Origin: a phage
Sequence record: OZ346189.1
DNA: 64,000 nucleotides
Strand: one strand, 5' to 3'
Shown here: positions 1,541 to 49,105 of the stretch, piece after piece
How positions within the stretch are numbered: the first letter of the stretch is position 1
Layout: each line of letters opens with the position of its first letter
The notes under the pieces: model-generated
Told to the model about the DNA's origin: nothing
Databases searched by the model: none
The model's input: the letters and a program-made list of their open reading frames with translations, nothing else
Made by a program: the position numbers and the translations under genes

Positions 1541-1567
1541 GCCCTGCCCGAAAGGGTGGGGCTTTTT
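1541..1567 (+). terminator. rho-independent terminator
   Basis: GCCCTGCCC-GAAA-GGGTGGGGC stem-loop (two G-U wobbles) followed by TTTTT; near-identical copy at 12924-12951. Confidence 0.6.
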
Positions 1568-1585
1568 GCATTAGGAGACAGCAAA

Positions 1586-2350
1586 TTGAAATTCATCTAC
1601 AAAGAACACTACCACAAAGGTGTTGTGTGGAGTCTATTTGACGGGTCTGGTGGTGCAGTTATTGACTGGGCAAAAGCTGGGTACCTGTGCCTGTGCTTTA
1701 ATGCAGAAGGTGCTGACCACGGCAGTTATGCAGAGGTGATAACCGATCATCCTAACATTCACTATGTGGATTATTGGATTGACCCATGGTTCCCTCAGGA
1801 AACTTTTTGCATGTATCCAGCTCCAGACTTTATTCTTGCATTTCCTCCGTGCACGCATTTAGCGGTATCAGGTGCTGCACATTTTAAGAAAAAGCTGGCT
1901 AAGGATCCTTTGATCCAAATTAATGCTGTAAAGGATGCTCGGGTTGCGGAAGAGTTGGGAGAGATTTACGATTGCCCGTGGCATGTAGAGAATCCTGTAG
2001 GGGTTATGTCCACACTGTGGCGAAAACCTGATTACCGTTTTCATCCTTCGGATTATGGTGGGTATTTACCGGAGGATGATGTAAACCCCTGGTTTCCTGA
2101 ATTTATAGCTCCACGTGATGCCTACCCAAAAATAACTTGCGGCTGGATAGGCAATGGATTTATAATCCCGGCCACAAAACCTGTCCCGCAAATAGTTGAC
2201 GCGGTTAGCGGGTATTCCATGCAACACGCCAAGCTGGGTGGAAAGAGTGCAAGAACGAAGATGATCCGAAGCCTCACGCCACGTGGCTGGGCAAAAGCCG
2301 TATTCTTAGCAAACGAGCCTGTAGTAAGGAGCAGAATTAATGGGAAGTAA
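1586..2350 (+). CDS. C5-cytosine DNA methyltransferase-like protein
   Basis: ORF track 1556-2350 but 5' end overlaps terminator; TTG 1586 with AGGAGA SD 1573-1578; motifs FDGSGG (motif I-like), PPCT..S.AG (PC motif, Q replaced by T) and VENPVG (ENV-like). Confidence 0.45.
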   Translation: MKFIYKEHYHKGVVWSLFDGSGGAVIDWAKAGYLCLCFNAEGADHGSYAEVITDHPNIHYVDYWIDPWFPQETFCMYPAPDFILAFPPCTHLAVSGAAHFKKKLAKDPLIQINAVKDARVAEELGEIYDCPWHVENPVGVMSTLWRKPDYRFHPSDYGGYLPEDDVNPWFPEFIAPRDAYPKITCGWIGNGFIIPATKPVPQIVDAVSGYSMQHAKLGGKSARTKMIRSLTPRGWAKAVFLANEPVVRSRINGK

Positions 2351-4418
2351 ATTTATGGCATCTGCATACAACCGTTTCGGTGAGCCAAACCCGAAAGCAA
2401 TTAAGTATAAAAGTGGGGGAAGTGTGAAACGAGACTATCGTGATGAAAAAGAGGTTGAAACTGTAGAGACTGTTTTAGAAAATACTAAAATCGTCCCTGT
2501 CCCACAACAAAATATCGGTCTGATGGCTGCACAATATTTTGGTGTGCGATCAGCATTGTCCCAAGAAGACGGTGTGACAGTCACTGCAACATATTTCCCA
2601 TATTACGACCGATACGGAAATCTGTCCGGTTTCAAAAAGCGTGACTGGACTATTCCTAAAGAACAAAGGGGCCACTTCTCCGTTGTTGGCATAGTAAAGG
2701 CCAACTCCCAGATGTTTGGTCAAAAGCTGTGTGCATCTTCCAACAACCGTAAGCAGATTAACGTTTGTGAGGGAGAAGGTGATGTTATTGCAGCATGGCA
2801 GGCTGCATATCAGATACAAGTAAAAGGGATTCTCACCAACGCTAAAGCCCCGGCAAAGGTGAAGCAGTGGGCTAAAGAGGTCCAGGACGGGATCGACGCA
2901 GTTATCAACGGTGGTGATCTGGCAGGAAAACCCTGCCTGCCTTTTGTTGGAATTAACTGTGGATGTGCAAACGCAGTAGATACTTTTGCAAACAATGAGA
3001 AGTTTATCCGTAGCTATGGAACAGTTGTGCTGGCAATGGATAACGATGCAGCTAACGAGGTAGAGAAGCAAAAACACGTCATTAAAGGTGTTGAGGCCAC
3101 GCACAATATCGCAGCATTTTTGATGGCTGATAACGTTTACCACGTAGAATACCCTGGTGAAGTAAATGACCCTGACGGGGTAAAAGATATCCGTGACATG
3201 CTGAAGGCTAAAAAGCTGGAAGATATTGTCAACATGTTCCGGCACCCTGTTAAATATGTGCCTGATGCTGTGTCGGATTTAGAAGACTTCTCTATCGAGT
3301 CTTTGCGGAAAAAGACTTCCAACGGGGTAGATATCAGCGCAGAGTTCCCAAAACTGCAAAAAATGCTAAAAGGCTTGCACAAAGGGACACTCGTAATGCT
3401 TACAGGGCCATCAGGGGGCGGTAAAACAACTGTAGCTAAAAAACTGGAACATTGTATTGCAAGATACCTAATGGACCCGACATGCCCGAAGGCTGATGAC
3501 TATGAAGAGGATGATCGTCTATGTATGATCCATCTTGAGGAGGACCCAGAGGAAGCAATTAACTCCTTGTATGCAAACCAGTTAGGGTTTGATGTTAAAG
3601 AGTTTGTTGAAGATCCTAGCCAGTTTTTAACTGATCAAGAACACGCAGAGATTCACCAATCATGGGCAAAAGCTGGAAAAATCAAAGTGTTCAAACATTT
3701 CGGATCTATTCCGGTGGACGAGTTGATTACCAAGCTTAAGCAAATGGTTTGCCTGTACCATTGCCGTTATATTGTGCTGGATCACCTATCCATGGTAATT
3801 TCAGGGCTTAATGTTAAGGATGAGCGAAAAGAACTGGACATGGCTATGACTCAGCTGGCTGCGTTTTGTAAGCAGTTTAACGTGTTTATCTTGGTGATCG
3901 CTCACCTCAAACGTACAGAGATTGTGCCTCCTAAGGACAAGGATGGTAACCCGTTACCTTTCTGGTATCCTGTGCGAAAAGAGAATTTGCGAGGATCGGC
4001 GGGGCTTGAACAGTTGAGTTGGGTAGTCATAGGTGTCGAGGCCGAAGAAATGGTGGATCGTTCTCGTGGACGTGTCCGTCTGGTAGGTCTTAAAAACCGT
4101 CCAGCAAAAACTCTAGGTATTGCTGACACTTTGGTTATGGACCCGCACACAGGTAAGTTCCATGATGCCAGTAATTGGTACTGGGACAAAGAAATGCAAA
4201 TGTTTACAGACGGAGAAGGTGGGGAGGTTGTTTGGAGACCTCAGGCTATGTTTGAGGATCAGGAGCATGCAGTTGTAGAAACACCTATGGGCAAGGTTGT
4301 GGCTGATAAGGTTGTAACTCCTACTGTTAAGCCTGTTGACACGCAGGAAGACCTCCAGTACGATGATCCATCCTCTGACCCGGTCCCTGGTTTTGAGGAT
4401 GATGAAACGCCTTTTTAA
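2340..4418 (+). CDS. bifunctional primase-helicase (toprim primase + DnaB-family helicase)
   Basis: 692 aa; toprim-like VCEGEGDVIAAW, Walker A GPSGGGKTT, RecA/DnaB-like C-terminal domain; acidic C-terminal tail ...GFEDDETPF. Confidence 0.8.
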   Translation: MGSKFMASAYNRFGEPNPKAIKYKSGGSVKRDYRDEKEVETVETVLENTKIVPVPQQNIGLMAAQYFGVRSALSQEDGVTVTATYFPYYDRYGNLSGFKKRDWTIPKEQRGHFSVVGIVKANSQMFGQKLCASSNNRKQINVCEGEGDVIAAWQAAYQIQVKGILTNAKAPAKVKQWAKEVQDGIDAVINGGDLAGKPCLPFVGINCGCANAVDTFANNEKFIRSYGTVVLAMDNDAANEVEKQKHVIKGVEATHNIAAFLMADNVYHVEYPGEVNDPDGVKDIRDMLKAKKLEDIVNMFRHPVKYVPDAVSDLEDFSIESLRKKTSNGVDISAEFPKLQKMLKGLHKGTLVMLTGPSGGGKTTVAKKLEHCIARYLMDPTCPKADDYEEDDRLCMIHLEEDPEEAINSLYANQLGFDVKEFVEDPSQFLTDQEHAEIHQSWAKAGKIKVFKHFGSIPVDELITKLKQMVCLYHCRYIVLDHLSMVISGLNVKDERKELDMAMTQLAAFCKQFNVFILVIAHLKRTEIVPPKDKDGNPLPFWYPVRKENLRGSAGLEQLSWVVIGVEAEEMVDRSRGRVRLVGLKNRPAKTLGIADTLVMDPHTGKFHDASNWYWDKEMQMFTDGEGGEVVWRPQAMFEDQEHAVVETPMGKVVADKVVTPTVKPVDTQEDLQYDDPSSDPVPGFEDDETPF

Positions 4419-4480: not shown

Positions 4481-7400
4481 ATGAGTATGTGGAATTTTGA
4501 CTTTGAGGCCTCAGGTCTTCTGGACGAGGAAGATCTTTACTACCATTGTGGCCTGTTTAAAGAGTTGAATAAAAATAATTTTATGTTGTTTTTGCCTATC
4601 AATGATAGATCTCATTACAGTGAAGAGGAGGTTGAAAAAGCAAAACAATTTATGCTGGCAAAGCAAGATATCTATCCTAGCTGCTCTGTCCGTATTGCGG
4701 ATTTCAGCCAGCTTGAATGGTGGTTAACCGGGAACTCCGATTGGTCACCCACATCATTAAGTTGTCACAACTGTTTTAGTTATGACTTTATCTTGATGGA
4801 GAAGCTGTCTGGTATTCATTTTGATATGTTCCGTGATCCCAAGTGTATGGGGACAATCAATAATCATCAGGTGAACCTGTTCGACACTCTGCCAATGAGT
4901 CGTATACTATGGCCCGACAGACCGTTACCTAAAGGATGCCCTGATTCTGTATACAATCCTGTTACAAAACGTATGCAGCAGGTAGGTCCTCATGGCCTAA
5001 TGGCGTGGGGGTACGCTTTAGGAAACCAGAAGGTTAAAATTGATGACTGGAGAAATTTACCTCTGTGGAAGTATGTTGATCGTGTATTCGAGGACGTTAT
5101 CATCCAGGAGCTGCTCTGGAAAGAGCTGGTAGCGGAATCAAAAGGTGTATTCTACGGCAAATCTGACATGCAGAACTTTATGTACGATCCAGCCAAAGAG
5201 AAGCCGAAAGGGTTCAAGAAGATTACCTGGAAGAATGCATTACGCCGAGGCATGCTGCAGCACTTCCTGATGGAGCTGCAGGCCCGTCAGGGTGTATACT
5301 TCGACATAGATGGAGCTATTGCTTTACGTGACCGTTGCGATGCGTGGATGAAAGAAATCGCTGATCGTGTTGAACCACAACTACCTTTAAAAGAGCTGTC
5401 AATGTCTCAGCGGCCCAAGTTCCCTGAAAAGCCGTTTAACCAAGACGGGACAATCTCTAATAATGGTTGGAAATGGTTAAAAGATAAGCTTGGCTATCCT
5501 GTAGACATGAGTGCTTTAGAGTTCAAAGCCCCGCCTAAGCGAGCATTTACCTCTACAGGAGATGTCAGCAAGATGGGGATAAAATGGTGTGAAGAGATGG
5601 GCTGCAAAGACCCCGATAAGATGGCTGATTTCTTGAGAGGCTATATTAAGGGCACCTCCACACCACAACCCTTACCTAAAGAGCTGATGGATCAGGCAAT
5701 AAGTGATCTGCAGCAGAAGCGAATGCCTGACTGCAAGATACCTATGAAAATCAGCAATCAGGACGACATCAAGCGATACCTAATCAGTGCTGGTTGGCTC
5801 CCAACAATGTGGAGAACTAAAGATGTAACTAAAGACAGCAAGAAGAAAGCTTTACCTGATGCAGATGTTGATGCACGAGTATATGCATATATGGACGAGC
5901 TTTTGGAGTCAGAGTATTGTGACCTAATTATCAACTTCTGGAACAAAACTGATGCTAAGTTCCAGACAACCGTGCACAAGTTCCGAAGCTTTCCTAACTC
6001 CGAAAGGATTAAAAAGGAAGTATTCGGGAAAATACGTAGAAAAGCCAGGGCACTTATTACTTCTCCGCAACTGAAAGATACGTTTGGACACCTATGCCCA
6101 AATCTTGAAAAATTGAACGGAGAGATGGCTAAAGATATCGTCTTGTGGTTATCATTGCGAAACCGCAGATCGGTCCTTGATCCAATCAAGGAGGATAAGG
6201 TTGATACTGGTCTTCTTAATCACCCACGTTTGAAGATTGACCATAAGCTTCCTGCTAAAAGCTCTGGATTAACAAACACTTCCAGACAGAAACACAGTAT
6301 TTGTGCAAACATGCCTAAACCATCTCCTAAAGTGGTTATGGGTAAAGAGATGCGTAGTCTGTGGGGTGTTCCTCCGGGATACTTTGAGATCGGTATTGAC
6401 GGGTCCAACTTAGAGCAGCTTATCGGGGCTTGGGGTGCCTTTGAGTTCGACAACGGCCTGTATTATGATGTTGTAAGTAATGGCGATGCACACTGTTATT
6501 CAGGAGATACACAAATTCTCACGGAGAAAGGGTGGGTGAGGTTTGAAGATCTTGATCCGGGAACACAAGTGTTCCAGTACGATCACAACACCTCGTCAAT
6601 GAACCTTGTTACTCCATTAAATTACGTTAAGCGTAGTTATTGTGGGGATATGTATCATTTCCACAACAGTAGTGTGGATTTTATGGTTACAGATCAACAC
6701 AGGATGCTGACTGTGGATCACAGAAGCAATAAATTGTTTGAAGATTTGGCAAAAGACCTGAAAGCAGGTAAAGGGTCTAATTCAGGAAGAAGGTTTATCC
6801 ATGCGGCAGAGTTTTATGGGAATACAACCTTATCTCCTGCCCAGGTTAATTTGCTTATTGCTATTCACGATGATGGGCACTTGCATACAAATAAGGACGG
6901 CAGCATCGTGTGCAGGATTCAGGTCGGAAAGGGAAGAAAAGTTGCAACGCTTTTAGATACTTTTTCTGCTCTAAGCCTTAGTTATGTAGAGCAGAGCGGG
7001 AAAACCACAAAAGGGGGCTTACTGGCGAGAAGGTTCCAATTCCACGTTCCGTCCTGGGTATTTGAGTTTTTGGACAACAATAAGGATTTCACCTATAACC
7101 TGATGAACCTTGATAAAGAATCTAAAAACCTGTTTATAGCTTCTTTATCTAACTGGGACGGGTGGGTATCTTCCGAAGGTGGAAAGGTTGCTTACTACTC
7201 CCAGGCCGAGTGCAGGAAGAAATCTGTAGAGGTGGTGTCTGCGCTGGCTACTCAGTGTGGTTTACGGAATAATACGGTGGCGATTCACAAAAAAGGTCGT
7301 GCCGTGCAGCACAGAATCACAATTGGTAGCAAACAGAGAGCAGGGTTGCTGACACTATCTAAAGAGTCTGTCGAGGTGAGCGGTTCTTTGGTTTATTGCG

Positions 7401-7879
7401 TTACCGTCCCTTCTGGAGCAATCATTGTGAGAAGGAATGGTAAAGTGGCAGTGTGCGGTAACTGTAATAACGCCAAAGCTTACTCTTCTGTAGCAGGCAA
7501 GGAGATTTCCCGTAACGATGGTAAACCTATCACGTATGGGGTTATGTATGGGGCACAAAAAGATAAAGTTGCAGATATGCTGGACATCTCCCCAGAGTTG
7601 GGACAAAGGGTAATCGATGCACTCTGGGATGCCAACCCAGGTCTTAAGGGGCGCAAAGAGGATCTGGAGAAATTCTGGGAAGCAACAGGTAAGAAGTTTA
7701 TCTACTCTTTTGATGGTCATGCTATCTGGACCCGATCTAAACACTCTTTACTTAATGCATACCAACAAAATGGCGGTGCATCGTTGTGTGACTTAGTTGG
7801 AATACTCATGCACCACCAGATGGTGAAGCGTGGGTGGTACGATGAAGGTGTTCGTCGTATTATTTATTACCATAAATAA
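4481..7879 (+). CDS. DNA polymerase, family A (Pol I/T7 gp5-like), N-terminal and catalytic part; contains an intein; interrupted before C-terminus
   Basis: SD AAGGAGAA; motif A IDGSNLEQL, Pol I-like DAH segment, motif B SRNDGKPITYGVMYG, Q..G.A.D segment QQNGGASLCD and HDE-like WYDE near end; stop TAA 7877-7879. Confidence 0.85.
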   Translation: MSMWNFDFEASGLLDEEDLYYHCGLFKELNKNNFMLFLPINDRSHYSEEEVEKAKQFMLAKQDIYPSCSVRIADFSQLEWWLTGNSDWSPTSLSCHNCFSYDFILMEKLSGIHFDMFRDPKCMGTINNHQVNLFDTLPMSRILWPDRPLPKGCPDSVYNPVTKRMQQVGPHGLMAWGYALGNQKVKIDDWRNLPLWKYVDRVFEDVIIQELLWKELVAESKGVFYGKSDMQNFMYDPAKEKPKGFKKITWKNALRRGMLQHFLMELQARQGVYFDIDGAIALRDRCDAWMKEIADRVEPQLPLKELSMSQRPKFPEKPFNQDGTISNNGWKWLKDKLGYPVDMSALEFKAPPKRAFTSTGDVSKMGIKWCEEMGCKDPDKMADFLRGYIKGTSTPQPLPKELMDQAISDLQQKRMPDCKIPMKISNQDDIKRYLISAGWLPTMWRTKDVTKDSKKKALPDADVDARVYAYMDELLESEYCDLIINFWNKTDAKFQTTVHKFRSFPNSERIKKEVFGKIRRKARALITSPQLKDTFGHLCPNLEKLNGEMAKDIVLWLSLRNRRSVLDPIKEDKVDTGLLNHPRLKIDHKLPAKSSGLTNTSRQKHSICANMPKPSPKVVMGKEMRSLWGVPPGYFEIGIDGSNLEQLIGAWGAFEFDNGLYYDVVSNGDAHCYSGDTQILTEKGWVRFEDLDPGTQVFQYDHNTSSMNLVTPLNYVKRSYCGDMYHFHNSSVDFMVTDQHRMLTVDHRSNKLFEDLAKDLKAGKGSNSGRRFIHAAEFYGNTTLSPAQVNLLIAIHDDGHLHTNKDGSIVCRIQVGKGRKVATLLDTFSALSLSYVEQSGKTTKGGLLARRFQFHVPSWVFEFLDNNKDFTYNLMNLDKESKNLFIASLSNWDGWVSSEGGKVAYYSQAECRKKSVEVVSALATQCGLRNNTVAIHKKGRAVQHRITIGSKQRAGLLTLSKESVEVSGSLVYCVTVPSGAIIVRRNGKVAVCGNCNNAKAYSSVAGKEISRNDGKPITYGVMYGAQKDKVADMLDISPELGQRVIDALWDANPGLKGRKEDLEKFWEATGKKFIYSFDGHAIWTRSKHSLLNAYQQNGGASLCDLVGILMHHQMVKRGWYDEGVRRIIYYHK
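6494..7462 (+). mobile_element. intein with LAGLIDADG-type homing endonuclease domain inside DNA polymerase
   Basis: 323 in-frame codons between Pol motifs A and B; starts CYSGDTQIL (block A), TDQH (block B), LLIAIHDDGH and LFIASLSNWDGW (LAGLIDADG-like), ends ...LVYCVTV...VAVCGN followed by Cys +1. Confidence 0.7.
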
Positions 7880-10987: not shown

Positions 10988-11233
10988 ATGACTGAAGCAG
11001 TTGCTCGCGCAGGACAGAAAGTACGTTGTGTTGAAGTAGGTTTTGGTGGCAAAGGGTGTCAAAACTTGACTCAAGGCAAGGAATATGCTGTTATCTCTGG
11101 TGGTGGCGACGAAAGTATTGTGTTCGAGGGCCACATCCTGGATGCTGAAAACTTTGAAATCTTTGACGACGATGGGGATCCGATCACCTGCCTGCTGGAC
11201 GGGAATTGGGGAACTTTCGAAGTGATTGGCTAA
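10988..11233 (+). CDS. hypothetical protein
   Basis: 81 aa; CAGGAGA SD. Confidence 0.5.
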   Translation: MTEAVARAGQKVRCVEVGFGGKGCQNLTQGKEYAVISGGGDESIVFEGHILDAENFEIFDDDGDPITCLLDGNWGTFEVIG

Positions 11234-11316
11234 CAAATACCTATTGTAATTTACAGAAGGGGATGCTAAAATAGTGTCTCCTTCTATGTTGTTCAAATAA
11301 AATCGGAGATTCCATA

Positions 11317-11685
11317 ATGGAACAAATGAACGATCAAGAGTCGGTTGCGATGAACGAGCAAGAACAACCTCAAGAATTTTTCTTAGGGTTAAGTAAAGAT
11401 CAAGTGTCTCTTTTGCTAGTGCTTTCTTCTTTCATGGGAAGACTTCAGGAGCTCACACAACAACCGGAGGCTGAACAATTATTTCAGGCTCTGCGTGAAG
11501 AAGAAAAATATCGTCGTTTGGACTATGCCTTAGGTTGGGTAGCTCAACAACGAGATATGCTGATGGCCCTCTCTGGGACCACAAGTTTTGCAATGGGCCT
11601 GTTGGCTCAAGTTCAGGACAAATTAATTCAAGCAGGGTTTGCACACACGGCAAACACTAACGAAGAACAAGGAGACAAAGAATGA
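11317..11685 (+). CDS. hypothetical protein
   Basis: 122 aa; Gln/Glu-rich N-terminus. Confidence 0.5.
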   Translation: MEQMNDQESVAMNEQEQPQEFFLGLSKDQVSLLLVLSSFMGRLQELTQQPEAEQLFQALREEEKYRRLDYALGWVAQQRDMLMALSGTTSFAMGLLAQVQDKLIQAGFAHTANTNEEQGDKE

Positions 11686-12908
11686 GCGTTATTCAACAAT
11701 TCGCTAACCCGATGAATCCGCGTGAAACTGTTTTACTGGCTCACGGCATGATTAAACGCGTCAGCATCAAGCCTATCAAAGGTGCTGATCCTACAACAGG
11801 TATTAAAACCACTGTGTGGCAAGGTAAGAAAATTGAATCCAGCCACACCATCTCTTTACTGATTTCTGAACTGGATTCCTCTGATAACCTACTTCAAGGT
11901 GGTGAAGAAGTTTGGATCAGTATGGGCGATAAGCTGCTTAAACCGGGTCATCAAGACTCTGTCTCTGTTAAAATTGATGACAAGTGGGAAACCGTAACGC
12001 CAGGATGGATCGTAAATATCCCTTTGAAGGCAAACGAGCATAACGGTAAGACCTACTACAAAGGCTCACTGGCTAAGATGGTTAAGCTGGGTGCAGGAGA
12101 GGCTCCAGCAGCGACTCAGCAGCAAAAACAGCAACAAGGTGCACAATCACAAGGCCAGAAGCAGAAACCTCAGCAGAATGCCAATCAGGACGTTTTACGC
12201 ATCTATGGTGATGTGACTCAGATTGTTGGCAACGTGGTTACTGTAAATGACCACAAGATTGGCGAAGGTGCTATGGTTGTAACTGATGAGCAGCTTAAAG
12301 ACCTGGTGGTAGGTGGTCGTGTTGCAGCCATTGTTGACAAAGACACTGGAAACATTATCAGTGGTTTCAAGGCCTATCCTCCTAAGGCAGAGAACGGCAC
12401 TCAAGGCTCCGGTGGCAAGCGTAAATCCTCTTACGACCCTATCGGTGTGGAAACGGGGCATAGCATCAATGCGTTGCAGATCATCCTGGATCGCGGGTTT
12501 AAGGTAGACGACCCACTGGGCGTGGCTAAAACACTGCACGTAGTCACCATTGAGCTTAAGAAAGAGTATGCTCAAGCCACCAACCGAACTGAAGATGAAG
12601 TAGGTGCCAGTGTCGGTAATGCGGTGTTGAACGCTTGTCGCCGTATTGACAAGAAAACGAAAGTTGATGATTTTGCAGCGGCAATTACTGCAGAAGCAAA
12701 AGATGTCTTGACTAATCTGGCTGAGCCGTTGTACGATTGGATCAAGAACGGTGCTGGGTCAACTGACCATCAAGAACCTCAGGCTGCCAAACAGGAAGCA
12801 GCTCCACAGCAAAACACTGTAGACGCTCCTCCTGTAAATGATGGGGAAGATGACCCGATGGATCAGAATCCAGCACAGTACGCCTTTGATGATGACATCC
12901 CTTTTTAA
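11682..12908 (+). CDS. SSB-like protein with acidic C-terminal tip
   Basis: 408 aa; Gln-rich linker (ATQQQKQQQGAQSQGQKQKPQQ) and C-terminus ...AFDDDIPF, identical in form to the SSB tip motif DDDIPF; AGGAGA SD. Confidence 0.45.
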   Translation: MSVIQQFANPMNPRETVLLAHGMIKRVSIKPIKGADPTTGIKTTVWQGKKIESSHTISLLISELDSSDNLLQGGEEVWISMGDKLLKPGHQDSVSVKIDDKWETVTPGWIVNIPLKANEHNGKTYYKGSLAKMVKLGAGEAPAATQQQKQQQGAQSQGQKQKPQQNANQDVLRIYGDVTQIVGNVVTVNDHKIGEGAMVVTDEQLKDLVVGGRVAAIVDKDTGNIISGFKAYPPKAENGTQGSGGKRKSSYDPIGVETGHSINALQIILDRGFKVDDPLGVAKTLHVVTIELKKEYAQATNRTEDEVGASVGNAVLNACRRIDKKTKVDDFAAAITAEAKDVLTNLAEPLYDWIKNGAGSTDHQEPQAAKQEAAPQQNTVDAPPVNDGEDDPMDQNPAQYAFDDDIPF

Positions 12909-12923
12909 CAATTAGTTAACATA

Positions 12924-12951
12924 GCCCTGCCCGAAAGGGTGGGGCATTTTT
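12924..12951 (+). terminator. rho-independent terminator
   Basis: GCCCTGCCC-GAAA-GGGTGGGGC + ATTTTT; second copy of the 1541 terminator. Confidence 0.6.
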
Positions 12952-12970
12952 GTATAAGGAGATCTGAAAA

Positions 12971-13387
12971 ATGACATTAGAAGATATCATTGTTAAACCT
13001 GAGAACTATGACCAATACAACCTGTCAACTCAATCTGTAGACCTTGGATGCGCCACAGTTAGTGCGTGGCTGGTTAATGGAAAAGAGCTGGACAAGTGCT
13101 TAGAAGCTCACATGTCTGTTAACAAGTTTCTGGATGAAAATACTCACTGGCTTGAGGGTGCTGGAGTATATGCTTCATGGTTGGAGAGCATGGGCTTTGA
13201 CTATCAATCTGATGAAGGGTGGTGGAGCTATCTGGCTATCTGTCCAGAAACACTGCAATGCTTCATGAAATACTCTGAAGATCTTGAGTACCGAGCGGTG
13301 GTTGATAGTGCTATTGCCCGTTATAGCCGTAAACCTTTTTCCCATGACATTAAAACTGTGGAAGAATTTGTTGAAGTTTTCTGTTGA
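12971..13387 (+). CDS. hypothetical protein
   Basis: 138 aa; AAGGAG SD. Confidence 0.55.
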   Translation: MTLEDIIVKPENYDQYNLSTQSVDLGCATVSAWLVNGKELDKCLEAHMSVNKFLDENTHWLEGAGVYASWLESMGFDYQSDEGWWSYLAICPETLQCFMKYSEDLEYRAVVDSAIARYSRKPFSHDIKTVEEFVEVFC

Positions 13388-13483
13388 CACAGGTTGAAAG
13401 GTGTGCAATTATAACTTCATAAAACGGGAGGACGCGATGAACGAAGAAAACTGGGATGTATAACTAACAGGAGACCACTGCCC

Positions 13484-13681
13484 ATGATTTATCGAATCCG
13501 TGTAAGAGAAGATGCACCAGGCTGTTACTTTGACTGGCGTGGGTGGTGGTTTCTCCACCCAATGGATGGACTCACAGATAGAATGCTGGATGCTGCCCTT
13601 TATACAGATACCGACATAGAATATAATCTCTATCTGAAGGACGGTATAGATAACGGTCTATTTGAAGCAATTCCTGTGTAA
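13484..13681 (+). CDS. hypothetical protein
   Basis: 65 aa; CAGGAGA SD. Confidence 0.45.
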   Translation: MIYRIRVREDAPGCYFDWRGWWFLHPMDGLTDRMLDAALYTDTDIEYNLYLKDGIDNGLFEAIPV

Positions 13682-13749: not shown

Positions 13750-14169
13750 ATGATCTATGAAATGCCAAAACTGATTCGTGACGATGCCCAAAACCACACC
13801 ATTATTATGGGTAAACGCATGAATATCCTTTGCCGTAACGATTTCTGTGGTGTAGAATACGTTGCAGACTACTTCGGTGAGAATGGTAAACACCCTGTTC
13901 AGTTCTTCCTTGACCATGAGGATAACATTATCTGGGAGTTTGAAACTGAAGATATCCGCAACCTCTTCATCTTCCTCGGTGTCAAGGTTAAGGCCAATTT
14001 CGCGGAAGGTGAGTGCGACGATTGTGGATTTTATGAGGTGACAGACTTCTATCTCCCGAGTGGCAAGAACATTTACTATGAGAGTCACTTCGGAAACACC
14101 AACATGCCTCAAAGCTGGGAAGAATTTTTCAGTATCGTAGAAGAGGAGCTGGCATACCGTGATTATTGA
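13750..14169 (+). CDS. hypothetical protein
   Basis: 139 aa; several Cys/His; SD present. Confidence 0.5.
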   Translation: MIYEMPKLIRDDAQNHTIIMGKRMNILCRNDFCGVEYVADYFGENGKHPVQFFLDHEDNIIWEFETEDIRNLFIFLGVKVKANFAEGECDDCGFYEVTDFYLPSGKNIYYESHFGNTNMPQSWEEFFSIVEEELAYRDY

Positions 14170-14617
14170 TACTGTAAAGGGAGATTTAATCTCCCTTTTT
14201 AAGAGCGGTGCTGGTCACCTAATCCACGGTTGTAACTGCTTCCACACAATGGGTAAGGGCATAGCAAAACAGATTGCCCGTGAGTTTCCTCAAGCATTGT
14301 CAGCCGACAAAGAGACCAGACACGGTTGCCTAAGTAAACTGGGTGCGTTCTCCCGATGGGAGCACTTATCTCCGAGAGGTATTGTCTACGGAATCAATCT
14401 GTATACTCAGTTCTACCCAGGGCCTAATGCTGAATATTTCTCAATCCTGAAAGGCTTTGAGCTAGTCAATGAGGTATTCGAGGGATCGACTTTACCATTC
14501 TACATCCCTAAGATCGGATGCGGCATAGGCGGTTTGAAGTGGGAGCACGTAGAGGACGTTATTAACCTCGCCACTTTTGATATAGATATTATCGTGGTGG
14601 AGTACAAAGAGTGTTGA
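14159..14617 (+). CDS. macro-domain protein (ADP-ribose binding/processing)
   Basis: 152 aa; N..(5)..G-x-G-[IV]-A..IA segment (HGCNCFHTMGKGIAKQIA) and IPKIGCGIGGL, matching the two macro-domain signature segments. Confidence 0.6.
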   Translation: MIIDTVKGDLISLFKSGAGHLIHGCNCFHTMGKGIAKQIAREFPQALSADKETRHGCLSKLGAFSRWEHLSPRGIVYGINLYTQFYPGPNAEYFSILKGFELVNEVFEGSTLPFYIPKIGCGIGGLKWEHVEDVINLATFDIDIIVVEYKEC

Positions 14618-45662: not shown

Positions 45663-46751
45663 TTAAAACTCCCAAATTTCTTCTTCAGCGTCGTTAACAG
45701 TTGTGTTGACGCGGTAGTCAGTGTTCGACATTTCTTGGTTCGCCGTCTGTTGCAATGAAGGTTTCATCCACACCTGCATAAACGGTAGCGGGTCCTTTGT
45801 TGGCGGCACAAAGTCTTTGTCGATGTCGTAGTAATCATAAATCGGTGAGCAGTTATAGTCAACCCATTCTTTAAGCAACGGTGAGTTAAGACCTATAATC
45901 GCTCTTCCTTCGCTGAAAATATAGTCACTCCAACCGTACTCTTTGGTTCGCACTTCATCAAGAATCTCTTTTAACTCCCCTTTTATCTCAAGGAAGCTTT
46001 TCTCCCATGCGGGATCATTAAGCAGGATATCAATGATGGCAAAATCACCTTTCGAATGTAGCATTTCGTCAAGCATGATTTTTTGAACAAGCTGCGCCAC
46101 CTGAACAAAGATACCCTGTTCAGCTACTGCGAAAGTGCATGCAAAACTTGCAATAAACTCAATACTTTCCAGAGCTAAAAGTGCAAAAAGCGCTCTAAGA
46201 ATGCATTTCCGCACAACATCTTCTTCAACACTAGAAGGATCCAGTCGGTATTTTGCACCAATAACCTCAAGCTCTTGCATGTATTTGACAATAACGCCGG
46301 ATCTGCTCAGAACGTTTTGGTTTTCCTGAATCTCTTCTATAATCTCACGGGCATTGGGGAGGCATTGTCTAACAATCTCTGAGTAAGTTAGTGCGTGAAG
46401 AACTTCAATCTCCGACTGTTTCATCAATAGAGTGAAAAGCTCACTATTAGTGATGAATGGTGAAAAGAGGCAGATGATCGATCTTGCCGCAACGCTATCA
46501 GCCTCCCATTGCCACATCAAGGTCTGAACCATCACATCATAAGTTGACTTTGAGCATGTTACAAAATCTGAAATAGATTGCGACAAATCCACTTCATCCT
46601 CTGCCCAGTCTTGTTCTTTTTGTTTTTTGTACAGTTCGAACAGTTGTGGATATTTTTTGTTGATAGAGTCGTACATACCCATTTGCTGTCCCAGAAACAG
46701 CGGATAGTCACCAGTTTTATGAGCGGTGTTCTCAGCATTAAATACAGCCAT
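45663..46751 (-). CDS. nrdB: ribonucleotide reductase small subunit
   Basis: ORF track 45663-46811 runs through an intercistronic hairpin; likely start MAVFNAENTAH at 46751 after AGAGGTAGAA; ferritin-like RNR beta. Confidence 0.85.
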   Translation of the reverse strand: MAVFNAENTAHKTGDYPLFLGQQMGMYDSINKKYPQLFELYKKQKEQDWAEDEVDLSQSISDFVTCSKSTYDVMVQTLMWQWEADSVAARSIICLFSPFITNSELFTLLMKQSEIEVLHALTYSEIVRQCLPNAREIIEEIQENQNVLSRSGVIVKYMQELEVIGAKYRLDPSSVEEDVVRKCILRALFALLALESIEFIASFACTFAVAEQGIFVQVAQLVQKIMLDEMLHSKGDFAIIDILLNDPAWEKSFLEIKGELKEILDEVRTKEYGWSDYIFSEGRAIIGLNSPLLKEWVDYNCSPIYDYYDIDKDFVPPTKDPLPFMQVWMKPSLQQTANQEMSNTDYRVNTTVNDAEEEIWEF

Positions 46752-46768
46752 TATTCTACCTCTAAAAT

Positions 46769-46782
46769 GGGGCCGAAGCCCC
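46769..46782 (-). terminator. intercistronic hairpin between nrdA and nrdB (attenuator/processing site candidate)
   Basis: Transcript-sense GGGGC-UUCG-GCCCC followed by AUUUUA, 13 nt before the nrdB SD. Confidence 0.35.
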
Positions 46783-46789
46783 TTTAAAA

Positions 46790-49105
46790 TTATAGTGCAC
46801 AGCTTTCGCAATACGGATCTTCAACTGAACTATCTGCAATCAAAGGATAGTTCTTTCTGGTTTCATCTTCAGCCTGTTTCTTGGCATGAAGTTCCTCTGC
46901 CAAGGAGTCACCCGCACCAACCCTAGAGTTTAAATAATACCATGTCTTCATTCCGAATTTAGTGGCACGGATAAGGTACCCTAGCTGCTCCTTCATTGAA
47001 ATTTTACCATCTTTCAACTTGGTGTAGTCTATGTATAAATCCGCGCTGATTGCCTGACCTGTGAATTTTTGAATCACAGCATACATATCGATCATGTCGT
47101 TAGTATCAACGTCCCAAGCCGAAGTGTAATACTCTTTCAACTCATCATAGTCAGGAACGATAAACAGCACCTGCCCTTGTGGCGACTTTTTAAAGATAAT
47201 GTGCTCACGGACAGGATAAACCCCGTTAGTGGTGTTTGTTGCCAGCGAAGAGCTTTCATTAGGCATATATGCTTCAAGAACGCTATTACGTAGCCCACCA
47301 TTTTCAACGATTTCTTTACGTAACCCTTCCCAATCCTGTTTAAGAGAAGGATCTTTCACCACGCTATCGACCTCTTTGTTATAGGTGTCGATTGGTAACC
47401 AACCTTCTGGATATTTTGTTTTATGCATCCACTCGCAGACACCACGCTCTTTTGCCAACCGTAAACTTGCCTTATGCAAGCTGTAGCTGTGAAGTTCTGC
47501 AAGATCGTGAACGAGCTGTTTACTTTCAGGAGACCCGTAAGTAACCTTGTGGCTGGCAATAAAATGTGCAACATTGGTAAGGCCAACCCCGATGGATCTG
47601 CGTTTTTTAACTGTGCTTTCCATATTTTCATACGGATATGTCATGATTTCCATAACATTGTCAATCATAAGCACCGTATAGTATGCAACATCCTCATACT
47701 CCTCTGGAGTAACCCTCCCAGCTACAAGAGATGACAGGAAGCACAATGCAACCTCTCCATCATCAGCATCGTACTTGAAGATATTACGCATATCTGAATA
47801 GCCTTTTGTCGGGAGGGCTATTTCTGCACACAGGTTGCTTGAATAGATCACATCTTTAAAAGGTGTATGTCTATTCATCTCATCTGTCCAGTATACGTAC
47901 AGCCTTCCCACCTCAGTGCGCTGCGTGATCAGTTCAACAGCAAGATCTCTAGCTCGGATCCATGTTTTAGGAATACTGTCATCTTTAGCAATACGATCAA
48001 CCTCTGCATCAAACTCCTCTATAGACATGGTGAAGATACCCTCATGCAGTTGAGGCGCGTGCTTATAAGAAACAAGCATCCAATCTAAATTCTTAGCCAC
48101 ACGGTTGATAAACGACCTATTAATACCGATGGAGTAGTCCATGGTGTTGATTCTTTTTGAAGCAACAGTCATAGGGTTTCTCAAACGGATTAGCTCATCA
48201 ATCTGCGGGTCCAGTGCAAGGAATGATACTGTTGCAGAACCACCACGTGATTGTTGTCTGTTCTCCTTAACCCCAGCATCAATACCTCGATAATATGGAA
48301 TCTTACCCATATGTTTAATAGTGTTACCACGAACACCATCGCCTGCAGATCTTGAGGATAAGTAGTAGCCGATACCTGCTTGGTTAACCGTCATTGTGTA
48401 CGCAACTTCACGTGCCACACCAATAGATTTTGCTGTATCGTCAGCTTTTATTACACAACAAGATGCATACCCTGTCTTACCTGTGCGCAGCCCGTTTAAG
48501 TACGGTGTCGGGGCATTGATCTTTAAGTCGGACAGGTAAGTGTATAATTTTACAACATCGTTGATACGACGTTCTTTCGGCATATTCTTCATGACAGCCA
48601 TTGCTATCCCCATAAACATCATCTGGGGAGATTCAAACAAGGTGTCTTTAAGAGTATCCTTGATCCCGTATTTGTCGCGAAACTGTTTAAGGACTGCATA
48701 GCCATAACCGAGATCTTTACTGTGATCAATAACAGTGCCTAAAGTGTTTAACTCGGTAAAGCTATAACCCATATCCTCCCAATACCCTTTCTCAACCATG
48801 TCGTTGTAAAATGATGGTAAGGAAGGGATCTTTGTAAACCCTCCAAAAGCCTCTTTATAAATCTGACCAATAAGAACACGACCAGCCATACGGGAATGTG
48901 CTTCGTCTTTACGGCTAACACAGGAGTCTATGATAGCTTGGTTAACTTCTTTGGTTGTACATCCATCATACAGTCGTTTGTATGCATCCAGTGCAATGTG
49001 TGACCAATTGCCGTTACCGTCGTCACCGAAAATAGCTGCCTTATTTAAACGTTCTGGATCGAATGCCACTTCACATCCGTTGCTTTTAATTACCTTGGTG
49101 ATCAA
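46790..49105 (-). CDS. nrdA: ribonucleotide reductase large subunit
   Basis: 771 aa; N-terminal ATP-cone, catalytic SSNLCAEIALPT, C-terminal redox pair ...CESCAL. Confidence 0.9.
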   Translation of the reverse strand: MITKVIKSNGCEVAFDPERLNKAAIFGDDGNGNWSHIALDAYKRLYDGCTTKEVNQAIIDSCVSRKDEAHSRMAGRVLIGQIYKEAFGGFTKIPSLPSFYNDMVEKGYWEDMGYSFTELNTLGTVIDHSKDLGYGYAVLKQFRDKYGIKDTLKDTLFESPQMMFMGIAMAVMKNMPKERRINDVVKLYTYLSDLKINAPTPYLNGLRTGKTGYASCCVIKADDTAKSIGVAREVAYTMTVNQAGIGYYLSSRSAGDGVRGNTIKHMGKIPYYRGIDAGVKENRQQSRGGSATVSFLALDPQIDELIRLRNPMTVASKRINTMDYSIGINRSFINRVAKNLDWMLVSYKHAPQLHEGIFTMSIEEFDAEVDRIAKDDSIPKTWIRARDLAVELITQRTEVGRLYVYWTDEMNRHTPFKDVIYSSNLCAEIALPTKGYSDMRNIFKYDADDGEVALCFLSSLVAGRVTPEEYEDVAYYTVLMIDNVMEIMTYPYENMESTVKKRRSIGVGLTNVAHFIASHKVTYGSPESKQLVHDLAELHSYSLHKASLRLAKERGVCEWMHKTKYPEGWLPIDTYNKEVDSVVKDPSLKQDWEGLRKEIVENGGLRNSVLEAYMPNESSSLATNTTNGVYPVREHIIFKKSPQGQVLFIVPDYDELKEYYTSAWDVDTNDMIDMYAVIQKFTGQAISADLYIDYTKLKDGKISMKEQLGYLIRATKFGMKTWYYLNSRVGAGDSLAEELHAKKQAEDETRKNYPLIADSSVEDPYCESCAL

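Follow-up and report, generated by a model that had tools for sequence, protein, structure and literature searches.

A phage protein of predicted OB fold carries the C-terminal tip of host SSB and is a candidate SSB of rV5-like phages

The 408-aa protein encoded at positions 11,682-12,908 (forward strand) of the 64,000-nucleotide stretch of phage DNA analysed here (OZ346189.1, hereafter the window) is probably the phage's own SSB, in which a novel scaffold of predicted OB fold is joined to a host-type interaction tip. This work demonstrates, through comparison of sequences and predicted structures, that the OB domain is coupled to the tip across the protein family, and that the position of the gene near those for the primase-helicase and family-A DNA polymerase (PolA) is conserved. 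Both the SSB-like identity, and its reading as mimicry of host SSB, are already published at the level of prediction. Hence the finding itself is already known, because a near-identical ortholog, Bas52_0087, has been described with the same interpretation (bioRxiv 10.64898/2026.04.29.721553, 30 Apr 2026). The additions made here are a family-wide census, an argument from the missing SSB, the limited conservation of the helicase tail, and the masking of the tip by a homing endonuclease.

The tip is a character of the family

The protein ends ...NPAQYAFDDDIPF, its final residues AFDDDIPF being followed by a TAA stop codon, and its C-terminal peptide is PAQYAFDDDIPF. The original prediction had read this end as the bacterial SSB form, which the translation of the ORF bears out. 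The tip DDDIPF (12,888-12,905, forward strand) is the E. coli SSB-Ct hexapeptide, and forms a free C-terminus in this phage. An alignment of 24 members, reaching down to 30% identity, shows P407 and F408 without variation and D403 with a conservation of at least 90%. The similarity extends further in phAPEC8-type relatives, which end ...PEEPPMDFDDDIPF; their last 12 residues are identical to those of E. coli SSB (PDB 1eqq_A), which ends ...SNEPPMDFDDDIPF. Such ends are rare in the genome. Of 344 mechanically-defined ORFs in the window (50 aa or longer), only three end in PF, one of which is a 55-aa ORF ending HLLPF; the two with an acidic tail are the 408-aa protein and the primase-helicase, and the same two proteins are the only acidic-PF ORFs among the 654 of the nearest complete genome.

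The tip had also been described as following a Gln-rich linker, which proved to be misplaced. The Gln-rich segment is at aa 141-170, between the first and second beta domains, while the segment directly before the tip (aa 359-402; 12,756-12,887, forward strand) is an acidic, P/Q/D/E-rich linker, rather than a Gln-rich one, and is predicted to be disordered (pLDDT below 50 over 359-403). The last 50 residues have a net charge of -11.

The extent of the family was assessed with a profile restricted to the first 140 residues, searched against 1.84 billion representatives. This retrieved 122 cluster representatives, in 80 of which an acidic run preceded a terminal [IVLM]PF. A further 11 had this motif followed by an extension, and 14 had a close variant (SPF, APF or IPW), such that about 105 of the 122 carried the tip or a close variant, counting the extended forms; the remaining 17 were mostly fragments or unrelated giant proteins. 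As the tail was left out of a profile that nevertheless retrieved mostly tip-bearing members, the tip belongs to the family, and on these sequence comparisons its match to SSB-Ct is not a chance resemblance.

The bodies to which the tip is attached are diverse. Among 162 full-length members, 61 combined the N-terminal, middle and helical domains, 61 the N-terminal and helical domains, and 14 the N-terminal and middle domains, with 15 having the N-terminal domain only. All these classes carry the tip, so that the N-terminal domain and the tip are constant, whereas the middle and helical domains vary. The 56 clusters found by a word-indexed search were all on phage contigs, the largest of about 135-146 kb, and tblastn yielded 334 phage records with a family member, from rV5-, phi92-, phAPEC8-, CR3-, CB7- and PVP-SE1/SSE121-like phages. 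All 60 rows sampled from this result were labelled 'hypothetical protein', and Pfam returned no match for the window protein or 34 family members (24, then 10) at E-values up to 10 or 0.1.

A divergent OB fold with a conserved helical bundle

The original prediction had judged the N-terminal region not to be obviously a canonical SSB OB fold, and had proposed structure prediction as the check. A single-chain AlphaFold2 model was therefore generated with the family alignment (mean pLDDT 74.8). It divides the protein, all on the forward strand, into an all-beta OB-fold domain that is putatively ssDNA-binding (aa 1-140; 11,682-12,101); the Gln-rich linker (13 of 30 residues Gln, 12,102-12,191), with pLDDT below 50 over aa 141-169; a second small beta domain (aa 171-236; 12,192-12,389), with strands at 171-232 of pLDDT 79-87; and a four-helix bundle (aa 251-358; 12,432-12,755), modelled over aa 253-356. 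The segments modelled as disordered are 141-169, 237-250 and 359-408. The Gln-rich linker varies in length between isolates (variants P0002 and P0005), and the second beta domain, named OB-fold-2 in Fig. S6 of the preprint (10.64898/2026.04.29.721553), is missing from short members of about 270-310 aa, such as P0052-P0056.

The N-terminal domain is an OB fold in this model. Its best structural matches are ssDNA binders, with true SSBs among the top matches and enriched in two independent libraries. The domain has a pI of 8.8, and conserves both aromatic and basic residues (H55, W78, W102, Y125, Y126, K25, K30, K49, K97 and K123). Hence the doubt over the canonical fold held for the sequence, which shows no detectable relation to E. 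coli SSB or T7 gp2.5, but not for the predicted fold. In hhalign comparisons, the N-domain profile matched E. coli SSB residues 1-117 with a probability of 0.08%, and T7 gp2.5 with one of 0.19%, each template being a single sequence, which limits sensitivity. The same profile found no SSB among PDB sequences, and when the tail was included, the PDB profile search matched only the E. coli SSB tail. Outside the tail, neither the window protein nor the family members matched an SSB in PHROG or Pfam. A sequence-level assignment to a known SSB family was therefore rejected, as Pfam, PHROG, PDB profile and hhalign searches were all negative for the body. Instead, the protein matches phrog_4477, of 'unknown function', over residues 1-408 and profile positions 1-393 of 393 (E = 2.9e-173), and distant family members likewise match only this PHROG.

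Most invariant residues lie in the four-helix bundle (G255, G259, H260, N263, G312 and L316), as do both positions at which mutations escape the defence system DRT10 (D252 and Y351). Modelled alone, the helical domain reached a pLDDT of 95.3, and a structure search found no informative neighbour for it. We infer that the bundle is an oligomerisation module.

The gene lies in a replication module with no other SSB candidate

The window belongs to a Vequintavirus, an rV5-like myovirus of E. coli. Over bases 11,000-13,500 it shares 99.1% identity with Escherichia phage AlexBoehm (Bas56), and 117 phage records match this region with an identity of at least 90%. The gene for the 408-aa protein, an ortholog of rV5 gp209 as well as of Bas52_0087, has a strong Shine-Dalgarno sequence (AAGGAG, 11,669-11,674) 7 nt before its ATG. 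Its start overlaps, as ATGA, the stop codon of an upstream 122-aa gene (11,317-11,685; phrog_7310, unknown function), with which it is probably co-transcribed as a two-gene unit. Upstream of this unit is a promoter-like site (TTGTAA-17-TAAAAT with TG, 11,244-11,272), found by a consensus scan only, in which the number of sites did not exceed that in shuffled sequences. Directly 3' of the gene is a terminator-like intrinsic hairpin of 9 bp, 7 of them GC, followed by a T-run (12,924-12,955); this carries a terminator annotation in HdK5. All these features are on the forward strand.

The gene is approximately 7 kb downstream of that for a gp4-like DNA primase-helicase of 692 aa (2,340-4,418, forward strand; phrog_239 'DNA primase/helicase', E = 8e-160; DnaB_C at 332-589, and AAA_25), which combines a DnaB-type helicase domain with a primase region. 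The gene for the 408-aa protein is approximately 4 kb downstream of that for a family-A DNA polymerase of 1132 aa with an intein-like insert (4,481-7,879, forward strand), which matches phrog_17 and phrog_8888 (DNA polymerase), and weakly DNA_pol_A and Hint_2. This polymerase is presumed to be the partner in a T7-like replisome. The same gene neighbourhood is found in IMG/VR relatives down to approximately 30% identity.

The hand-curated annotation of AlexBoehm lists a polymerase, primase-helicase, further helicase, 5'-exonuclease, DnaQ-like exonuclease, ligase and EndoVII, and contains no SSB, clamp or clamp loader. A phmmer --max search of the AlexBoehm ORFs found none that resembled E. coli SSB; the last 26 residues of the E. 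coli SSB query were verified against PDB 1eqq_A. The search for a canonical SSB elsewhere in the phage was thus negative in the nearest complete genome, for its annotated genes and the phmmer comparison alike. The rV5 genome paper likewise names a ligase, a polymerase and two helicases, and never mentions an SSB (PMC3606486). On the available sequences, the 408-aa protein is the only candidate SSB of rV5-like E. coli phages.

The published ortholog triggers a bacterial defence system

Bas52_0087, from Escherichia phage RudolfGeigy (Bas52), is identical to the window ORF at 405 of 408 residues, and has the same length and the same neighbours. The preprint (10.64898/2026.04.29.721553) identifies it as the trigger of DRT10, a reverse-transcriptase defence, and as an SSB-like protein encoded by the phage, with a Phold call of 'SSB-like'. 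The ortholog is genetically required for DRT10 activation, and both Bas52 escape mutants mapped to this gene (D252V and Y351C). Supplying the wild-type protein in trans resulted in stronger restriction; expression of Bas52_0087 alone was neither toxic to E. coli, nor sufficient to trigger DRT10. The AlphaFold2 model in the same preprint contains two OB folds, a four-helix bundle and a disordered region, with which our independent model of the window protein agrees. The authors describe the C-terminal tip FDDDIPF as 'closely resembling' its E. coli SSB counterpart, to which ExoI/SbcB and other proteins bind; overexpression of SbcB weakened DRT10 defence, and competition of Bas52_0087 with SbcB was proposed (10.64898/2026.04.29.721553).

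A homing endonuclease extends the tip in about a third of isolates

The homing-endonuclease extension past the tip in about a third of isolates is a new observation. In 38 of the 117 Vequintavirus records, including those of SophiaRose and rV5, an inserted cassette of 640 bp directly follows the Phe codon and takes the place of the stop; comparison of the junctions places it between this codon and the terminator-like hairpin. EmilHeitz, DrSchubert and MaxBurger have the extended allele, RudolfGeigy and AlexBoehm the free tip. The insert carries the gene for an EndoVII/HNH-type homing endonuclease (phrog_1035), and the ATG of this gene sits within the resulting 15-codon extension of the SSB-like ORF. 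Hence rV5 gp209 ends ...DFCDDIPFAPVGLQYGKSRIHAL, and the extended SSB-like protein ends ...DDIPFAPVGLQYGKSRIHAL. The possibility that these 15 aa arise by read-through, or act as a further functional motif, was rejected, as they are the 5' end of the inserted cassette. The same type of extension (APIGLQY...) recurs in family members at 35-42% identity, and therefore this lineage of endonuclease homes to the tip site.

In the known pockets for SSB-Ct, a 'basic lip' holds the alpha-carboxylate of the terminal Phe, this being among the most important contacts (PMC10164576). The canonical tip should therefore be impaired in the extended phages, which are nevertheless viable, meaning that a free end is dispensable, that the added residues are removed, or that the relevant partner recognises the motif in an internal position. 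The extended alleles are the main evidence against a simple model in which the tip is required. More speculatively, and with a low probability in our estimation, the cassette might be a natural switch. The 15 added residues would bury the alpha-carboxylate of the tip, altering which host SSB partners (ExoI, for one) are engaged, and hence whether defences sensing this protein (DRT10) fire, such that the selfish element would also serve as an anti-defence allele. In a wider sense, phrog_4477 would then constitute a new and widespread class of viral SSBs in which mimicry of the host tip, rather than the scaffold, is invariant.

Discussion

The original prediction, that a phage protein with an SSB-type tip might act as an SSB or a mimic of host SSB, has gained in substance. 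The predicted OB fold, the family-wide tip, the lack of another SSB candidate, the 12-residue identity in some relatives, and the agreement of the preprint, with its genetic link to ExoI/SbcB and DRT10, all point the same way. If the protein acts as an SSB, its basic, aromatic-rich N-terminal OB domain would bind ssDNA at the phage replication fork, assisted in the long forms by the second small beta domain, and the highly-conserved four-helix bundle may mediate self-association or cooperativity. The disordered acidic tail of approximately 50 residues would then present the host SSB tip, DDDIPF, for docking into the sites, each a hydrophobic pocket with a basic lip, of SSB-interacting proteins. 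In this way, phage-coated ssDNA could attract host enzymes (ExoI/SbcB, for example) or compete for them, and might do the same with proteins of the phage replisome.

A different main purpose for the tip, albeit one compatible with an SSB role, would be coupling in the style of T7, in which the acidic, Phe-ending tails of gp2.5 and gp4 dock on the polymerase gp5. Here, the tails of both the 408-aa protein and the primase-helicase would dock on basic patches of the family-A polymerase. The primase-helicase ends ...PVPGFEDDETPF, and the final residues GFEDDETPF, noted in the original prediction, are seen in its translation, with the acidic tip EDDETPF at 4,395-4,415 (forward strand). The genome has a T7-like set of PolA and gp4-like primase-helicase, with no clamp or loader, and these two proteins are the only ones in the genome to end with an acidic run and PF, sharing the form [DE]3-x-P-F. 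However, this form is that of bacterial tips, unlike the DF ends of T7 gp2.5 (...EEADEDGDF) and gp4 (...STDWSNDTDF; NC_001604), and the match of the 408-aa protein's tip to bacterial SSB-Ct over up to 12 residues suggests host-type pockets. Furthermore, in Vequintavirus the helicase tail reads EDDETPF, and a sister group of 72% identity has EDEDCPF, but in more distant relatives, at 20-35% identity, the SSB-like protein keeps DFDDDIPF while the helicases end PEGSY, AEGAY or DSNY, preserving an aromatic end (Tyr) with little acidity, and losing the acidic PF form. Hence shared docking on the polymerase does not account for a tip that is conserved throughout the family, as the helicase tail form is limited to Vequintavirus and close relatives. 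The genetic link so far is to the host ExoI/SbcB. T7-style coupling as the tip's main purpose appears rather unlikely, the analogy of two tails docking on one polymerase being only a resemblance, although a docking site shared in this way is possible within Vequintavirus.

The other alternatives would dispense with the coating of ssDNA for replication as the main function, and are less likely than the SSB role. The protein could be an anti-host hub, with many copies of the host tip acting as decoys that titrate or redirect SSB-interacting enzymes, perhaps holding ExoI, RecQ, RecJ or PriA off the DNA of host or phage, and DRT10 sensing the perturbation. A tip identical to that of host SSB, and invariant in a family with a variable body, would suit such a role, as would the proposed competition with SbcB, the dosage of which counteracts the defence. 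Yet a strong titrator might be expected to be toxic, or to trigger DRT10, when expressed alone; the N-terminal OB domain, with its conserved aromatic and basic residues, is kept in every member found (partly by construction, as it was the search query); the gene sits in a replication module in which no other SSB was found; and extended alleles are common, though they would disable a pure decoy. We regard this role as improbable. Alternatively, the protein may not be an SSB at all. Its OB-like domains might bind protein, RNA or oligosaccharide instead, and its acidic PF end might be a generic docking peptide for a phage partner, much as the tail of NrdB docks on NrdA. Against this are the 12 residues that some relatives have in common with the end of E. 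coli SSB, the enrichment of true SSBs among the top structural matches in both libraries, the replication-module synteny combined with the missing SSB, and the connection to the ssDNA exonuclease ExoI and a cDNA-based defence, which together make it very improbable.

The rV5-, phi92- and phAPEC8-like phages are in wide use as candidates for therapy and biocontrol, and no SSB had been recognised in their replication module before 2026. Were phrog_4477 an SSB, it would fill a gap in several hundred genome annotations, and add a further divergent OB-fold family to the viral SSB repertoire. That the host tip is copied exactly suggests that the coat these phages place on their own ssDNA connects to the host SSB interaction network, and the SSB-like protein is in turn exploited by a bacterial defence system (10.64898/2026.04.29.721553). 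In about a third of isolates a mobile endonuclease masks the tip, amounting to a natural experiment on the importance of the tip's free end.

The closest known system is Bas52_0087, being the same gene, with the same predicted architecture, and the same proposed interplay with host SSB partners (ExoI/SbcB); ssDNA binding, a role in replication, the extent of the family, the primase-helicase tail and the homing-endonuclease extension are outside the scope of that preprint (10.64898/2026.04.29.721553). The logic of identification is that applied to DUF669/N4-SSB-type proteins, proposed to be SSBs by Kazlauskas et al. 2016 (PMC4889955) on the grounds that their OB fold is diverged, their tail acidic, and their genome devoid of another SSB, and to the Enc34-type DUF2815 proteins (PMC4889955; Cernooka et al. 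2017, PMC5686142). The 408-aa protein has weak Foldseek matches to DUF2815 proteins (E = 1.9e-3), and its family has no Pfam match to DUF669/N4-SSB or DUF2815; the four-helix bundle, and exact host-type SSB-Ct tip, are not among the features reported for either in the available text of these papers (PMC4889955, PMC5686142). T7 gp2.5 is likewise an OB-fold SSB of a phage; its acidic tail terminates in Phe, and the genome that encodes it also has PolA and a gp4-like helicase. The model and gene content suggest these features here too, with a PF end in place of the DF of T7. The comparison with E. coli SSB (PF00436) is of bodies that differ and an end that is shared. The phage protein is 408 aa in length, with a second beta domain and a four-helix bundle, whereas E. 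coli SSB is 178 aa, with a single tetramerising OB domain, and has a free tip, which in many isolates' phage homologs is not the C-terminus. Although homology between the bodies is undetectable in sequence, both are OB folds, by prediction in the case of the phage protein, and both continue through a disordered linker to a free DDDIPF end.

Homing endonuclease cassette and tip variation

In 38 of the 117 Vequintavirus records, including the type phage rV5 (gp208/gp209), an EndoVII/HNH-type homing endonuclease cassette (phrog_1035) is inserted directly behind the final codon of the gene for the SSB-like protein. The cassette, which is seen at 3405-4052 in the related locus L002 and at 1622-2245 in L030, replaces the stop codon, thereby adding APVGLQYGKSRIHAL to the protein. 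The same type of extension is also found in family members at 35-42% identity, meaning the element homes to the end of the SSB-like gene. It is missing from the window, where its expected site lies between 12905 and 12913. Some alleles, such as that of AlexBoehm, the nearest complete genome, have a DFCDDIPF tip without the cassette, and may represent footprints of co-conversion.

Several distant members of the family (P0094, P0110, P0131, P0154, P0155, P0168, and L023 at 1065-1898) end in IPFN or IPFS, extending one residue past the phenylalanine. Hence a strictly terminal phenylalanine is not universal, even where the endonuclease cassette is lacking.

Mosaicism within the family

Variation also affects the body of the protein. 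The alignment of family members (A1) exhibited domain-level mosaicism, with P0040-P0042, P0033 and P0034 differing in this way from the P0010 group: in some members, the N-terminal domain is divergent, yet the middle domain and linker are identical to those of another lineage, while in others the helical domain alone has been swapped. These sequence patterns suggest recombination at the disordered linkers. The Gln-rich linker itself (QQQKQQQGAQSQGQKQKPQQNANQ; 12102-12191, + strand) is longer or shorter in isolates that are nearly identical elsewhere, giving proteins of 404 aa in P0002 and 395 aa in P0005; low-complexity DNA that is prone to slippage would be expected to vary in this way.

The replication module and its neighbours

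The family-A DNA polymerase (4481-7879, + strand) is a single continuous frame of 1132 aa, containing an insert of approximately 335 aa (residues ~664-1000). This is probably an intein, based on a weak Hint_2 match and matches to PHROGs that themselves probably contain inteins. The locus varies among relatives, with the polymerase being 925 aa in HdK5, and annotated in AlexBoehm as a CDS in two pieces that flank a homing endonuclease.

Immediately upstream of the SSB-like gene, and translationally coupled to it through an ATGA overlap, is a gene encoding a 122-aa acidic, Gln/Glu-rich protein of unknown function (phrog_7310; 11317-11685, + strand). This adjacency is conserved in Vequintavirus, and the product is a possible partner of the SSB-like protein. 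Bordering the replication module are a gene at 1556-2350 (+ strand) for a Dcm-like cytosine methyltransferase (phrog_757) and one at 14159-14617 (+ strand) for a macro-domain protein, which matches Macro weakly and phrog_335 ("phosphatase").

Other proteins with similar tails

In the PHROG search, phrog_2544, a phage family of "unknown function" (~362 aa), matched P0052, L018 and L020 only through the C-terminal tail, and may therefore be a second unannotated family with an SSB-Ct-like tip. Within the window, the small subunit of the class I ribonucleotide reductase (45663-46811, - strand) has another acidic tail with an aromatic terminus, AEEEIWEF; on NrdB proteins, such tails serve for docking to NrdA.
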